Made by a program: the position numbers and the translations under genes. This document shows positions 9,895 to 19,132 of a stretch of 64,000 nt of DNA, piece by piece. The stretch is from positions 656,342-720,341 of the forward strand of contig JAWLHY010000002.1 of NCBI GenBank assembly GCA_041690135.1, written 5' to 3'. Origin of the DNA: Armatimonadota bacterium. GTDB taxonomy: Bacteria > Armatimonadota > SYMT01. Under the pieces are notes generated by a model. The model searched no databases and had not been told where the DNA came from. It saw only the letters and a list, made by a program, of their open reading frames with translations. How positions within the stretch are numbered: position 1 is the stretch's first letter; each line of letters starts with the position of its first letter.

Positions 9895-11553
9895 ATGAAG
9901 ATGCAGCGTCGCATTTTGCTCAAGGGGTGCTGCAACCTATCGCTGGTGGGACTGCTGCTGCAGCTCACGACCCAAACTGCCGCGACTGCAGAAGGCGGCG
10001 GAGATAGGCTTCTCTGGAAGGAAGCTCGTCTCGCCGGGAGAGTTACACTGCGAGAGCAGCAGATCACGATCGGCGAACTGCTCGAGAAGGTGGGAGCCGA
10101 GTGCGGAGTAGCTCTGGAGGCCGACGACCGGATCGCTCCGATCTCCGGCTACCACGTGACAGCCGTCTTCCGGGAGTGTCCGGCGCGTGAGCTCCTCTCT
10201 GCACTGGCCTCCCTCTATCGAATGCCCCCGGATCGGTGGTACTGGGAGCGCACCTCGCGACGCGGCAAACGGACTTACATCCTCCGCTGTACGTTGCCGC
10301 CCGAGGCGGAACTCGTGGCACGCGAAGAGTTCGGCCAGCAGTTCCGCCTCGACCAGCGGCGCCGGCGTGCCGCGTACTATGCCGCTTCCCCGGAAGTCCG
10401 GGCACGAATGGCCCGGACGGATCCCATGCTGGCGGCCGTGACCCCCCGCTCACCGGGGTTCTTCTCCTTCATCGCACCGCTTACCGACGTTGAGTTGCGC
10501 TCCATCGCAAACGGCCAGCAGATCGACATCCCCGCGGAACGCTGGACCCCTGAGCAAAGGGCGTTCATCCGGGAGGAGTTCCGCATTGCCAATCTCCTGG
10601 GCCGCCCAGGTGTCACCCAACCGGAAGAACTGACCCAGGTACGCCTCCGCTACAACGGCGAGGGAACGGTCGTCCTGGATCTCGGCCCCGTCGGCGCCCA
10701 CGGTGTCCTCGGCGGAATCTGGCTCCAGAAAGCCAACCGTGAAAACGACCTGCGGCGCTGGGTGGGAGACGGCGATACCACGGATGCTCCCGACCTGACC
10801 CTCCCCGCGCCTGATGAGCGGGGAAGCACCAGACCTGAAGATCTCGTGATCCGGGGCGAAACCGCGGATGCCGTCCTCTTCCGTCTGGCAAGACTCGGCC
10901 GGTTGAATCTGCTCTTCGACTCCCCGCCTCGGGTCCTGGGTCACCGCAACACCCCGAATTACGGACTGGCGGGACCCCTCCCACAGGTGCTGGCCGCTAT
11001 GGGGAAACAGGACCTCATCTGGAAACGTCGGGGGAAAGTCCTGCTTTTCCGCCGTCCGGACTGGGCAGCGGCGCGAACAGAGCGCGTTCTGCCGTGGGCG
11101 GTGGTCCGCGACCTGCGCGCCTCCGCGGCCGCGAACGGTGGCTACCTGCGGCCACAGGACTGGCTACGCCTTGCTGCCTTCGACCGGGCACAGTTGGACA
11201 GTCTCTCCGAAGAGTTTCCGGACGCTGGGAAACTGGCTTACTACCAGCTCCTGTTACGGCTTTACGGCGCGATGAGCCGGCGGGAGCAAACCGCCTGCCA
11301 ACGCCCCCAGGGAGCCGGCTGGCAGGACTGGACCAACGAAACGCGCCGGCGGCTGGAAGTCCTCTATCCACCGGCCGACGCCCGTCGCGCAGTTCTCTTG
11401 GTGCAGTGGGACACCGAGAAAAAGCCCCCACAGGCACGCTTCTATATGGGCAGCGGCCTGACAGCACCGGCAATCCGCGTCATAACCTTCGAAGCCCGCC
11501 GAGAGCCCGACGCGGCCTCCACGCATCCGCGCCGCCCGAGGCCCGAGAGGTGA
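9895..11553 (+). CDS. Secreted hypothetical protein, paralog of 8025-9755
   Basis: Signal peptide; IGELLEKVGAECGVAL; shares PW...GYLR...AQL..L.EEFPDA with the upstream gene. Confidence 0.75.
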   Translation: MKMQRRILLKGCCNLSLVGLLLQLTTQTAATAEGGGDRLLWKEARLAGRVTLREQQITIGELLEKVGAECGVALEADDRIAPISGYHVTAVFRECPARELLSALASLYRMPPDRWYWERTSRRGKRTYILRCTLPPEAELVAREEFGQQFRLDQRRRRAAYYAASPEVRARMARTDPMLAAVTPRSPGFFSFIAPLTDVELRSIANGQQIDIPAERWTPEQRAFIREEFRIANLLGRPGVTQPEELTQVRLRYNGEGTVVLDLGPVGAHGVLGGIWLQKANRENDLRRWVGDGDTTDAPDLTLPAPDERGSTRPEDLVIRGETADAVLFRLARLGRLNLLFDSPPRVLGHRNTPNYGLAGPLPQVLAAMGKQDLIWKRRGKVLLFRRPDWAAARTERVLPWAVVRDLRASAAANGGYLRPQDWLRLAAFDRAQLDSLSEEFPDAGKLAYYQLLLRLYGAMSRREQTACQRPQGAGWQDWTNETRRRLEVLYPPADARRAVLLVQWDTEKKPPQARFYMGSGLTAPAIRVITFEARREPDAASTHPRRPRPER

Positions 11554-11929
11554 CCACTGAACACTGGAACGGGATCTCGTCCCATTCACCGCACAGCGCC
11601 GTGGACTCCCACGGTGCTCGCGATCCAGGAACGGGATCCCGCGCCGTTTTCTCACAAACCCCGCGTCCCCTATCGCGACATACCCCCTGAGGAGACACTG
11701 TCGCTAAAATCAATGCCGTGTGCCAGCCGACACAACGGGATCAACCCCCGAACTGCGGAATGGAACGGCGTCGCATTCCCTACGGCTCCAACGTCCCTCA
11801 TTCCTCCAAACTACCAACACTACCTCATTAGGATGGGACTCCCACCTTCCACTTCCGACCACCGACATCCTACCATCCAGCCTGGCAGCGCCTCCCAGCC
11901 AAACCGTACCTGTAACGACCAGAAGGATC

Positions 11930-12095
11930 TCAGCCTTCCAGCCTTCAACCGTCCAACCCAGAAGCCAGTTCTGCCAACCTGCACCTTCTTTGTGCCTTCC
12001 GTTTTCCAACCTTCAACCTGCAAACCTCCAACCGCTGGCCCCCCAACCCCCAAGCCCCAACCTTCCACCTTCCACCTTCAACCTTCAAACCCAAA
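11930..12095. repeat. Degenerate heptamer tandem repeat (CCTTCAA/CCTTCCA/CCCCCAA)
   Basis: For example CCCCCAA GCCCCAA CCTTCCA CCTTCCA CCTTCAA CCTTCAA at 12047-12088. Confidence 0.8.
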
Positions 12096-12134
12096 GGCAC
12101 CCTCCGCCAAACCGCACCCCCTCTCAAATAACCG

Positions 12135-12163
12135 TTGACACGCACGCCTCACCCTGCTACGAT
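12135..12163 (+). promoter_or_regulatory. Sigma70-type promoter for tuf-S10-spc
   Basis: TTGACA (12135-12140), 17 nt spacer, TGc-TACGAT extended -10 (12158-12163). Confidence 0.8.
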
Positions 12164-12166
12164 ACG

Positions 12167-12713
12167 CAGGTTCGCGACCTGACCCCACGGGGAAAACGGT
12201 CCGAACGAACGCAATTGAGTTTGCGTACGTCGCGGTTGTAACTTCCACGGCCCCTGGCCGCGATCCGGAGAAATACCGGACCTTAGGCGGCGAGCACTGT
12301 GTCTGCCGGGCGACGACGGTAGACCGCCAGTGGAATGCGGAGAGTTCCCATGAATTCTCCACCGTTGCAGGTCTCCCTCTGGGAGAGGACTGCGAAAGCG
12401 GATTTTCGGCGGAGACGCGTGGCGGCCTCCGTGCGGGCGAGAGCGCGCATGGCCACGTTTCGTGTCACGCCATCCCGGGTGGCGCCACCACCCGAGCCCG
12501 CAGGGCTCCAAGCCGCGGGTGCACGAGCGAAGTGCGCCCGCCCGGTAGAGGAGTACGTCGCCTGCGGTTGTACTGAGTGGCGGGTCGAGATCTTGCAGGC
12601 CTCCCGCAGCGGGTGGCTGCGGCTGCAGGATGTGCGTGACGCACGGGCCGGGCCATGGCCTGGCGAGCGCCGCCGATGAGGCGGAAACGGATCCAATACG
12701 AACGGGAGCTACT
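12167..12713 (+). ncRNA. Putative long structured 5' leader / ncRNA upstream of tuf
   Basis: More than 12 hairpins plus long-range pairings between the promoter and the tuf start; no convincing ORF. Confidence 0.5.
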
Positions 12714-13898
<1,185 letters not shown>

Positions 13899-15957: not shown

Positions 15958-16788
15958 ATGGCTATTGAGAAATACAAACCGACTTCGGCCGGTCGTCGCT
16001 TCGGCTCGGTCTCCTCTTTCAAGGAGATCACCAAGGACGAGCCCGAGAAGTCCCTGCTCCGGCCGATCAAGAAGACCGGCGGCCGCAATCACCGCGGCGT
16101 GGTGACCTCGCGTCACCGCGGCGGTGGCAACAAGCGGCAGTACCGGGTGATCGACTTCAAGCGGGACAAGGAAGGCGTACCCGGCAAGGTCGCGTCGATC
16201 GAGTACGATCCCAACCGGTCCGCGCGCATCGCCCTGGTGGTTTACCGGGACGGCGAGAAGCGCTACATCCTCGCCCCGCAAGGGCTGCAGGTGGGCCAGG
16301 AGATCGTCTCCGCGGAAGCGGCGGACATCCGCGTGGGCAACGCGATGAAGCTCCGCAACATTCCCGTGGGCACGCAGATCCACGCCATCGAGCTCCAGCC
16401 GAACCGCGGCGCCCAGATGGTGCGCAGCGCCGGCACCGGCGCGCAGTTGATGGCGAAGGAAGGCAAGTACGCCCAGGTGCGCCTCCCTAGCGGGGAGACG
16501 CGCATGGTGCTGCTGGAGTGCCGCGCCACCATCGGTGTCGTCGGCAACAACGACCACGAGAACATTTCGCTCGGTAAGGCCGGACGAAAGCGTTACCTCG
16601 GGCAGCGGCCGCACGTCCGCGGTGTGACGATGAACCCGCGCGACCATCCCCACGGGGGTGGCGAGGGTAAAGCGCCCGTGGGTCGCAGCGGTCCCGTCAC
16701 TCCCTGGGGCAAGCCGGCTCTGGGCTACAAGACGCGGCGTAACAAGGCGACGGATAAGTTCATCGTCAAGCGGCGCGGCCAGCGGTAA
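15958..16788 (+). CDS. rplB: 50S ribosomal protein L2
   Basis: [21 protein letters not shown]. Confidence 0.99.
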
Positions 16789-16807
16789 CGCGTAGAGGGA
16801 TCAAGAG

Positions 16808-17095
16808 ATGGGCAGGTCACTGAAAAAGGGTCCCTATGCGGACCCCAAGCTGCTGGCGAAGATCGACGAGATGAACGACCGGGGCGAGAAGCGCATCATC
16901 AAGACGTGGTCTCGCCGGTCGACCATCTTCCCGAGCTTCATCGGCCATACGATCGCGGTGCACAACGGTAAAACCCACGTGCCCGTATTCGTCACGGAAA
17001 ACATGGTGGGCCACAAGCTCGGCGAGTTCGCCCTCACCCGCACCTACAAGGGTCACGCGGGCGGGCCTCGCGAGCGCTCCAGCGGGCTCCGGTAG
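16808..17095 (+). CDS. rpsS: 30S ribosomal protein S19
   Basis: RSLKKGP, KTWSRRS, GHKLGEF. Confidence 0.99.
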
Positions 17096-17121
17096 TCAAC
17101 GGTTAAGAGAGGCTAACGAAG

Positions 17122-17727
17122 ATGCCTGAGTATCTGGGAGGCCCCGGGCTCCGAAAGATCGTGCGCGCCGGCACGGATAAGGCGGCGTTCAAGCGCGTTT
17201 CGGTGCAGGCGGCGGGACAGGTGGCCGTGGTAACGGTTCACACGGTCAAGCCGGACGCACTGGAGCAGCGCCGCAACGCGGACCTCGTGCCCGGTTTGGA
17301 AAAGGCGCTCAAGAAGAGCGTCACGGTGCAGGTTCAGCCGGAAGCACAGGCCGTGCACAAGTTCGTGCGGGTATCGCCGACGAAGGCCCGGCGCATCATG
17401 GACGAGGTACGCGGAAAGTACGTGGACGAGGCGCTGGCGATTCTCCAGTTCCTTCCGAACCGTGCTGCTCGCTACGTCGCCAAGCTGATCCGCTCCGCGG
17501 CGGCCAACGCCTACGAGGGGTGGGGCGCCGACCCGGCCGAACTGAAGGTTGCCCTGCTGACGGCCGACCCCGGCCCGACGTGGAAGCGCATCCAGCCCCG
17601 CGCGATGGGACGGGCCTATCGAATTCTAAAGCGAACGGCTCACCTCACCGTGGCGGTGCAGGCTGCCGAGCCGCGCGCGACGAAGGGCGGTCGGCGGCGC
17701 GGTCGATCCGCGGTGACGCGGGCTTAG
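17122..17727 (+). CDS. rplV: 50S ribosomal protein L22 with N-terminal S3-KH-like domain
   Basis: L22 core from about residue 74 ([16 protein letters not shown]...[19 protein letters not shown]), preceded by a ~73-aa extra domain. Confidence 0.95.
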
Positions 17728-17743
17728 GCCGGCGGAGAAGACT

Positions 17744-18628
17744 ATGGGACAGAAAGTACATCCAATCGGATTCCGGATTGGGATCATCCGCGACTGGGAG
17801 AGCAACTGGTATGCCGACAAAGGCTACAGTGATCGCCTGTACGAGGATTACCAGATCCGGCGGTACCTGCGGAAGCGGCTCGCCAACGCCGCTATCTCGC
17901 GGGTGACGATCGATCGCCAGGCCGACAAGCTCCGCGTGGTCCTGCATACCGGCAAACCGGGCGTGATCATCGGTCGCGGCGGCCGCGGCGTCGACGAAGT
18001 CAAGGCGGATCTCGAGAAGAAGTTCGGCAAGCAGGTGAACCTGGTCGTCCAGGAGATCCGCCAGCCCGATCTCGACGCCCAGCTCGTCGCCGAGGCGATC
18101 GCTCAGCAGATCGAGAAGCGCGTTGCTCCCAAGCGCGCCATCCGGCAGGCGATCCAGCGCAGTGTGCGCATGGGCGCCAAGGGAATCAAGGTTCTCGTCT
18201 CCGGCCGCCTCGGCGGGGCTGAAATGGCGCGCAAGGAAGGGGACAAGACCGGAAAGATTCCGCTCCACACGCTGCGGGCGGACATCGACTACGGCTTTGC
18301 GGAAGCTCCCACCACCTATGGCAACATCGGGGTGAAGGTGTGGGTCTACCGCGGGGAGATCCTTCCGGATCAGCGCCGCCAGCAGAAGGAGCAGATGGCG
18401 CCCGAGCCGTTCATGCCGCGTCAGCCGCGCCGAGCGGAAGATCGCGATCGCGAGCGCGCCGGCGGTGGCCGCGGTGGTGATCGCGGGGACCGTGGTGGCG
18501 ACCGCGGTGGTCGTGGTCGTGGACCCGGCGGCGGTGGTGGTCGTGGACCTGGCGGTGGCGGTCGCGGTCCGGGGGGCGGCGGTGGTCGCGGACCTGCCGG
18601 TGGTGGTCGCGGACCCGGCAGACAGTAA
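17744..18628 (+). CDS. rpsC: 30S ribosomal protein S3 with Gly/Arg-rich tail
   Basis: [32 protein letters not shown]. Confidence 0.99.
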
Positions 18629-18643
18629 ACGAGGGAACTACAG

Positions 18644-19132
18644 ATGTTAGCTCCGAAGCGAGTGAAGCACCGCAAGGTGCACCGGGGTTCGCTGGCCGGA
18701 CGCGCCAGTGGCAACACCGAAATCAACTTTGGGGAATATGCCCTGAAGGCGATGGGTCGGTGCTGGCTCACCAACAAGCAGATCGAAGCCGCTCGTATCG
18801 CCATGACGCGCCACATCCGGCGCGGCGGTAAGATCTGGATCCGCGTCTTCCCGGACAAGTCCTACACCAAGAAGCCGGCGGAAACCCGCATGGGCTCTGG
18901 CAAAGGCGCGCCGGAAGGCTGGGTCGCGGTGGTGAAGCCGGGCCGCATCCTCTTCGAGATGTCGGGAGTCGCGGAGCCGCTGGCGCGGGAAGCCATGCGC
19001 CGCGCGGCGCACAAGCTTCCGATCGAGACGAAGTTCATCGTGAAGGGTCGCGAGGAGGCGCTTCCTGCGCCGGTTGAAGCGGAGACGGACGTCGCCGCGG
19101 CAGCCGAGTCGACCGAGGCGGGTGAGGAATGA
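18644..19132 (+). CDS. rplP: 50S ribosomal protein L16
   Basis: [15 protein letters not shown]; acidic C-terminal extension. Confidence 0.99.

Follow-up and report, generated by a model that had tools for sequence, protein, structure and literature searches.

The window analysed here, a stretch of 64,000 nucleotides (nt) from contig JAWLHY010000002.1 of an Armatimonadota bacterium, carries an S10-type ribosomal protein cluster whose Pfam assignments run, in order, L3-L4-L2-S19-L22-S3-L16-L29-S17-L14. Our subject is its rplV gene, which encodes ribosomal protein uL22 together with an additional N-terminal domain that we trace to the KH domain of the neighboring small-subunit protein, uS3. According to the open reading frame (ORF) list and Pfam, rplV has 201 codons plus a stop and is flanked by the S19 and S3 genes; solved bacterial uL22 chains in a Foldseek list, by comparison, are mostly 105-115 residues long. 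Its place between rpsS and rpsC in an S10-type cluster and its single copy fit the uL22 gene; a search of the whole 9.1-Mb, 25-contig assembly found it to be the sole L22 gene. Pfam L22 (PF00237) matched residues 77-179 only, at 117.2 bits against a cut-off of 28 and an expectation value (E) of 4.5e-34, and NCBIfam TIGR01044 likewise recognized just the second half of the product (126.5 bits, cut-off 73.65). Residues 1-75 were assigned to no family by Pfam or NCBIfam, and a feature search of the ESM Atlas with them gave no usable match. An earlier note on this DNA had already remarked on the unusual length and the extra N-terminal part, both of which stand. The features of the locus are as follows.

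16808-17095, plus strand: rpsS (uS19), the upstream gene, with its stop codon TAG at 17093-17095 (Pfam Ribosomal_S19, E 1.3e-37).
17107-17112, plus strand: GAGAGG, a Shine-Dalgarno-like motif 9 nt upstream of the ATG at 17122, as read from the sequence.
17122-17727, plus strand: rplV, a KH-like N-terminal domain followed by uL22 (ORF list).
17122-17340, plus strand: N-terminal extension, residues 1-73, a predicted diverged type II KH fold of probable uS3 origin (alignments, profiles, predicted fold, conservation).
17266-17277, plus strand: loop between two consecutive helices, residues 49-52, QRRN (GRGG in uS3), from the BLASTP and hhalign alignments.
17320-17367, plus strand: continuous predicted beta-strand, residues 66-82, joining the last KH strand and uL22 strand 1 without a linker (DSSP, full-length model).
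17350-17658, plus strand: canonical uL22 domain, residues 77-179, including the long tunnel hairpin (strands 141-159 and 165-181; Pfam, TIGR01044, Foldseek).
17659-17724, plus strand: short basic C-terminal tail, residues 180-201, of low confidence (predicted local distance difference test, pLDDT, 57-75) and of varying length in relatives.
17744-18628, plus strand: rpsC (uS3), the presumed donor (Pfam KH_2 at residues 38-109, E 8.4e-18; Ribosomal_S3_C, E 1.3e-33).
17855-18070, plus strand: KH domain of uS3, residues 38-109, homologous to the rplV extension (Pfam, BLASTP, hhalign and hidden Markov model, HMM).

We compared the extension with the S3 encoded next to it. BLASTP aligned residues 10-72 with residues 38-103 of S3, 19 of 66 positions being identical (29%), with an E of 0.001 for that single comparison. 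This reproduced the alignment that had earlier been made by eye, along with its shared blocks AA..RV, HT.KP, LEK and K.V..VQ, and at the level of profiles the likeness lay far beyond chance. When a profile of 28 extensions was run against 177,635 PDB sequences, uS3 alone filled the top 41 rows (best E 1.3e-5), positions 8-71 of the profile falling on S3 residues 37-103, and hhalign against a profile of 64 S3 KH domains returned a probability of 97.7% (E 1.8e-12) over 66 columns. Reciprocally, an HMM of the S3 KH domain applied to the 742 ORFs of the window ranked S3 first and the N-terminus of rplV second (E 2.5e-8), the next ORF scoring 0.032. HMMs of the extension matched the S3 ORF at almost all fetched loci, among them those from Actinomycetota, Desulfovibrio and clostridial genomes, and always placed HMM positions 9-71 on S3 residues about 38-104. 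As to the phylum of the closest S3, Armatimonadota S3 scored best (E 3e-8 to 1.5e-7), with actinobacterial S3 following closely at 2e-7. When a single sequence was searched against 301 genomes of the phylum, weak matches also came up in about 34 further genomes; at the fetched loci these lay inside the S3 gene, save three. Two of the three stood before the L22 core of family f8, and the third (locus L101, genome G170) fell in a large frame that resembles a periplasmic solute-binding protein by reading of its translation, and was taken as chance. By its profile-level homology to an accepted member, the KH domain of uS3, the extension thus groups with type II KH domains, while its score stays below the gathering score of Pfam KH_2.

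The predicted fold pointed in the same direction. AlphaFold2, given the extension alone (28-row alignment), predicted a helix at 8-17, strands at 23-31 and 34-41, helices at 44-50 and 55-63 and a strand at 66-73; an alpha-beta-beta-alpha-alpha-beta order is the topology of type II KH domains. The same order was predicted in the full-length model (37 rows; pLDDT 89.5, predicted template modelling score, pTM, 0.78), where the blocks of the extension reached pLDDT 85-95 and comprised a helix at 8-17, strands at 25-31 and 34-41, helices at 44-49 and 55-63, and a last strand starting at residue 66. DSSP traced this strand unbroken from residue 66 to 82, the last KH strand running into uL22 strand 1, which argues for a rigid two-domain unit. 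The uL22 part of the model showed helices at 86-96, 101-109 and 114-134 followed by the hairpin, i.e., the uL22 fold, and Foldseek superposed it on solved uL22 with a target-side template modelling (TM) score of 0.9+ and a root mean square deviation (rmsd) of about 1.1-1.3 Å. The best 50 solved uL22 chains aligned to the 201-residue model over only 103-129 columns, and none of them carries such an extra domain. For the extension itself, 49 of the best 50 Foldseek rows in the PDB were ribosome or isolated-S3 entries (query TM about 0.6-0.75, rmsd 1.8-4.4 Å); 12 of the matched chains also appeared as uS3 in the PDB profile search, and a solution structure of the KH domain from human S3 is among the entries. 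VIA-align, run over 48,161 chains, placed at the top chain c of a bacterial 70S ribosome (Z 8.1, rmsd 2.7 Å, 73 aligned, residues 17-107), the only match with Z >= 8, followed by other KH folds. The earlier note had proposed that a KH fold should be predicted here; AlphaFold2 did predict one, and both structure searches ranked uS3 first. In sequence profile and in predicted fold, the extension is specifically uS3-like.

To see how widely the extension occurs, we searched 401 Armatimonadota genomes with the profile of 28 extensions at E <= 1e-12. It was present in 38 of them: the window genome, 4/6 genomes of f1, 1/1 of f2, 3/3 of f8 and 29/29 of f29 (f1, f2, f8 and f29 being family codes used in this analysis). 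No other family of the sample had it attached to L22, and it was absent from the families that group with records named Armatimonadaceae, Chthonomonadaceae and Chthonomonadales. The window's own class comprises 8 genomes, and the extension was found in all 6 that have any L22 gene; the remaining 2, which are 69% and 80% complete, lack an L22 gene altogether. A search of genome contigs for related loci returned L22 loci from many phyla and none from close extension-bearing genomes. Among 1.84 billion representative proteins, the 12 best matches (E <= 1.1e-9) were clusters with the domain, always at the N-terminus, and in all 5 scanned members of this set longer than 200 amino acids (aa) an L22 domain followed directly. 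No stand-alone form of the domain was found: the short library matches (89-153 aa) and P0132 proved to be gene calls cut short or shifted in frame, diverging once the extension ends. Common to four families and at least three classes of the phylum, the fusion is neither a recent event nor one confined to the window genome. In a tree of S19, the L22 core and S3 (64 rows, quick search), the extension rows formed three clades on an unresolved backbone. Forcing all 31 extension rows into one clade was not rejected (approximately unbiased test, p-AU 0.642), and the constrained tree scored 7.19 log-likelihood units above the free quick tree. A single ancient origin is compatible with these data.

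The extension is also conserved as a coding sequence. In a protein database, ~80 clusters of ~200-aa L22 proteins aligned end to end with the query at 58-97% identity, two of them named at source as Armatimonadota/Armatimonadetes L22. Among 120 listed proteins, the N-terminal extension measured 76 aa in a close group and 78-87 aa in a distant one, and both groups aligned over it; the distant group has long Ala/Pro/Glu-rich C-terminal tails besides. Tails of this low-complexity kind, 36-142 residues long, were seen in the uL22 of f29 (P0093, P0094, P0118, P0119 and others; loci L114-L136), whose total length reaches up to 330 aa. Identity to the window's extension was 47% in f2 and 18-31% in f29 and f8, and identity to its uL22 core 56-66% in the distant group; the extension's rate of evolution is about two to three times that of the core. 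Across six close loci, the variable sites of the extension numbered 42/75, 33/75 and 68/75 at the first, second and third codon positions, respectively. The ratio of nonsynonymous to synonymous rates (dN/dS, Nei-Gojobori) in ten within-family pairs was 0.14-0.31 for the extension and 0.10-0.28 for the core. This codon pattern indicates that the extension is conserved under purifying selection. A conserved fusion with dN/dS below 1 in relatives, as anticipated in the earlier note, is therefore what was found, the extension being in frame in relatives and present in 38/401 genomes.

Taken together, we consider it likely that residues 1-73 are a small KH-type domain that descended from the KH domain of uS3, was kept in-frame and lost its GxxG motif, that residues 74-181 form an ordinary uL22, that the fusion arose once, and that the domain serves as a rigid surface module of the 50S subunit. 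The direction of descent would be from S3 to L22, because all lineages sampled have the KH domain in their S3 (archaeal and eukaryotic uS3 among them) and the extension occurs in four families only; and since the S3 of the window keeps an intact KH domain, the event was a duplication rather than a transfer. In this scheme, a 5' part of rpsC was duplicated once onto the head of rplV and was then inherited vertically. Exactly this architecture would result if a tandem duplication had covered rplV plus a 5' portion of rpsC and one of the two rplV copies had then been lost. The adjacency of rplV and rpsC makes such a local duplication plausible; no DNA trace of it is left. As regards the identity and origin of the domain, the earlier note's reading is supported by these results, its proposed function being a matter of inference.

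Several observations weigh against this interpretation. GxxG, the hallmark of nucleic-acid-binding KH domains, was found in 0/28 extensions (between P44 and L59), and in this hallmark the extension departs from them. Pfam KH_2 (PF07650) did not match the window's extension at E <= 10 or any of the 28 extensions at E <= 1, and it was missed when the whole assembly was searched with KH_2 at E <= 0.1. The extension-only model is of moderate confidence (pLDDT 70.7, pTM 0.51), and VIA-align Z values of 5-8 are common for that method and not decisive alone, unrelated alpha/beta folds appearing at Z 5-6. The free tree requires at least 2 state changes, so that a single origin is allowed rather than shown. 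Relative to the f2 genome (the sister family), dN/dS rose to 0.50-0.61 in the extension and to 0.17-0.40 in the core, the extension being the more relaxed of the two, and these figures are rough, as dS is near saturation (0.6-2.0). No 23S rRNA expansion peculiar to extension-bearing lineages emerged from an alignment of E. coli and six Armatimonadota 23S or from a wider DNA search. Lastly, we infer the presence of the domain on mature ribosomes from sequence, and its position and partners on the 50S from other species.

Compared with uS3, the extension has lost the GxxG loop. In the BLASTP and hhalign alignments, GRGG of S3 pairs with QRRN (residues 49-52) and a three-residue deletion follows; the earlier note was thus right about the loss of the motif and wrong about the replacing residues, which it had given as EQRR. 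The strict pattern KPG-x(2-4)-GxxG was present in 53/64 S3 KH domains. The loop varies by group: RR is conserved in the close group only (RRNA-like; R50 and R51 at >= 90% in its alignment), and the loop is RMET-like in f29 and PEDVK-like in f8. Nothing in the extension corresponds to the ~37 residues ahead of the KH domain in S3. R25, K43 and K65 are among the residues kept in common with S3, the net charge is positive in 26/28 extensions, and lysine or arginine is conserved at R15, K20, R25, K43 and K65.

Given that the last KH strand appears to run into uL22 strand 1, the domain would sit as a rigid unit on the globular, solvent-exposed face of uL22. In that position, this mostly basic 8-kDa domain would enlarge or partly cover the 50S surface beside the tunnel exit, and its positive charge, with R25, K43 and K65, suggests that it leans on 23S rRNA as a structural brace. 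Judging from the model and from ribosomes of other species, the extension is thus probably a rigid, mostly basic 50S surface module beside the globular domain of uL22, near the tunnel exit. According to one study, the globular part of uL22 is surface-exposed and, with bL32 and rRNA, forms the groove for peptide deformylase, which methionine aminopeptidase also uses as its site (bioRxiv 10.1101/2022.04.20.488877), and another names uL22 as one of the proteins of which the tunnel and vestibule are built (PMC13338714). A domain placed here would reshape the uL22/bL32 surface used by nascent-chain enzymes. A more speculative and rather improbable extension of this idea is that the uS3-derived module provides a lineage-specific docking platform on the uL22/bL32 exit-port face, changing how deformylase, methionine aminopeptidase, trigger factor or the signal recognition particle (SRP)/translocon engage. 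If true, this would be a bacterial exit site remodelled by a small-subunit domain that had moved to the large subunit. Since enzymes that process nascent chains dock in part on the exposed face of uL22, Armatimonadota ribosomes make a structural target.

The domain, of the same origin, may instead have an RNA-directed role, in binding an mRNA, for instance that of its own operon in autoregulation, or in contacting some other RNA at the exit side of the 50S. Its descent from an RNA-contacting domain, its charge and the five conserved basic positions speak for such a role. However, the GxxG loop, which holds single-stranded nucleic acid, is absent from all 28 extensions, making canonical single-strand RNA binding unlikely; the loop differs among the three groups, and an Rfam scan of 16500-18000 found no RNA family, and so no known leader or structured RNA around rplV, at E <= 1. 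We regard this role as improbable, and prefer that of a surface module.

We looked for an rRNA partner of this module by comparing the 23S of E. coli with the six Armatimonadota 23S (loci L140-L145). At E. coli positions 277-293, all six carry an insert, 54-96 nt compared with 16 nt in E. coli; it measures 96, 96 and 79 nt in those with the extension and 54, 54 and 72 nt in those without. At 1406-1442, the extension-bearing 23S have 37, 37 and 42 nt (E. coli 36), whereas the extension-free ones are shortened to 16, 0 and 0. The loss in this region amounts to 20-36 nt in families f5 and f7. An extension-specific expansion in the first ~670 nt of 23S was considered and rejected, the 5' domains of extension-free families being equal to or longer than the f29 query (for example, 680-692 nt in f26, 689 nt in f19 and 694 nt in f22, where the query spans 670-674 nt) in what is a rough measure of length rather than of structure. 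Within the window's lineage, no 23S gene turned up in the assembly itself, in two f1 genomes searched or in the f2 genome, and the DNA search likewise found none in f1 (0/6) or f2 (0/1). The only match to the bacterial large-subunit (LSU) rRNA model in the assembly lies outside the window, at G000:C4:52623-52705 (83 nt, model positions 1077-1160, 54.3 bits); it may be a leader that mimics rRNA or a stray fragment of rRNA. In other genomes, two LSU-like matches of 3541 nt score only 1015 bits each (G036:C2:2550-6090 and 10172-13712) and one is split into three parts (G007:C77); these odd matches adjoin normal 23S in the same genomes and are possibly contamination or interrupted rRNA genes.

As to where the domain came from, the extension could in principle be a KH-like or generic alpha/beta domain of another source (Era, NusA, KhpA or RbfA-type, or convergent). 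The fold is a common one, and VIA-align lists archaeal CPSF KH, NusA, Der/EngA, RbfA and ferredoxin-like folds at Z 5-7.8, close to the top 8.1; the failure of Pfam KH_2 to recognize the extension would also fit such a source. Yet the 60 PDB profile rows shown comprised 42 uS3 and 18 myoglobin (noise, E >= 0.068), with no Era, NusA, KhpA, RbfA or other KH protein among them, and the hhalign alignment spans the whole domain. In the window's own genome, the extension profile scored S3 at 27.9 bits and the other two Pfam KH_2 frames at <= 2.6 bits; these two we take, from reading their translations, to be NusA-like and PNPase-like. Likewise, among the weaker library matches (E 2e-4 to 8e-4), all 13 scanned had Pfam KH_2 at the matched place, at residues about 37-110, which is the uS3 position, and 5 had S3_C as well; three further matches in this range, long multi-stretch proteins, were taken as repeat noise and left unscanned. 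These comparisons favor an origin in S3 over other KH proteins, as the earlier note had it, and make another source very unlikely.

The first ATG of rplV sits 26 nt past the S19 stop. An ATG at the same position, with a purine-rich GGAG/GAGG-like stretch upstream, was present at 6/6 close loci. The GTG at 17326, whose use as an internal start would have undone the proposal of a fusion, is not kept as a start codon: in five close relatives this codon, number 69, reads ATC, GTT, ATC, CTT and ATC. Codon 34 (the GTG at 17221 in the window) is GTG or ATG at 6/6 close loci, and the 33 codons ahead of it are conserved (M1, G7, A21 and R25 each at >= 90% in 26 sequences). Public gene calls P0083, P0084, P0069, P0071, P0072 and P0074 begin at this internal Met/Val, leaving an N-terminal extension of 40-43 aa and halving the KH-like domain. 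To judge by these reading frames, translation of uL22 begins at the ATG at 17122 and takes in the extension. That the first 68-75 codons are instead an untranslated, decaying relic of an rpsC fragment, with translation starting at one of the two internal GTGs, is scarcely credible: the start-like codon 34 and the shortened calls of some relatives (such as P0083 and P0084) would suit it, but codon 69 is a common start codon at 1/6 loci only, the codons before codon 34 are conserved, the extension is open and alignable throughout in 38 genomes of 4 families, its third codon positions vary most and its within-family dN/dS is low, a confident AlphaFold2 fold is not expected of a non-coding relic, and an internal start would leave a 125-230 nt spacer in an otherwise tightly packed operon. 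The KH-like domain thus goes unannotated by Pfam and NCBIfam and is under-called by automatic annotation, some gene callers shortening it.

Set beside known systems, the extension most resembles the KH domain of uS3 (KH_2), with the same order of elements over ~66 alignable residues, shared ..SRV.., HT.KP and K.V.V blocks, and uS3 as its best profile and structure match. It differs in riding on a large-subunit protein, in lacking the ~37 preceding residues, GxxG and three more loop residues, in escaping the Pfam model and in evolving faster than its uL22 partner. RbfA and the C-terminal domain of Der/EngA, small KH-like folds that work on ribosomes, are structural matches of the extension (2dyj_A, Z 5.5; 6xrs_A, Z 5.5; 1mky_A, Z 4.8) and are not known to have a canonical GxxG; they are, however, free factors, and the PDB profile search showed no sequence kinship between them and the extension. 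NCBIfam NF008917 ('50S ribosomal protein L22/unknown domain fusion protein') also joins uL22 to an extra domain, but L22 stands at the front of that model (positions 3-107 of 311) with the added part behind it, at the C-terminus, whereas the window's domain is N-terminal. The window protein scored 67.4 bits against its cut-off of 526, through the L22 part (3-107) only.

Lineage-specific uL22 extensions that add mass near the tunnel-exit surface of the 50S are known from actinobacteria (N- and C-terminal) and from chloroplast uL22c (C-terminal). An excerpt on Cutibacterium acnes describes a short N-terminal extension of uL22 among 23S helices H2, H24, H46 and H19 (PMC10085706), and one on Caryophyllales a uL22c extension that helps form a surface domain beside the exit (bioRxiv 10.64898/2026.07.03.736309). 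As these excerpts describe them, they are terminal sequence extensions, whereas the uL22 of the window is predicted to carry an autonomous folded domain of identifiable origin. A paper on ribosomes of the Candidate Phyla Radiation (CPR) names uL22 as one of the proteins of greater size in CPR bacteria (PMC9297842). Among the titles and abstract openings of the papers listed we found no published description of an L22-S3 KH fusion. Bacterial ribosomal proteins are among the most conserved known, and lineage-specific additions to them are mostly disordered tails. The extension belongs with these lineage-specific additions, and what is unusual is that it is a folded domain copied from a small-subunit protein. 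It offers a clean example of a ribosome surface module gained by intra-operon domain duplication and long kept across several classes of a little-studied phylum.

Elsewhere in the cluster, the C-terminus of uS3 (residues ~230-294, window positions 18430-18625) forms a ~65-residue Gly/Arg-rich tail with GGRG/RGG-like repeats past the S3_C domain, and uL16 (18644-19132) has an acidic C-terminal tail of ~30 residues past its Pfam domain (residues 4-132 of 162). Several proteins of the cluster thus carry lineage-specific tails.

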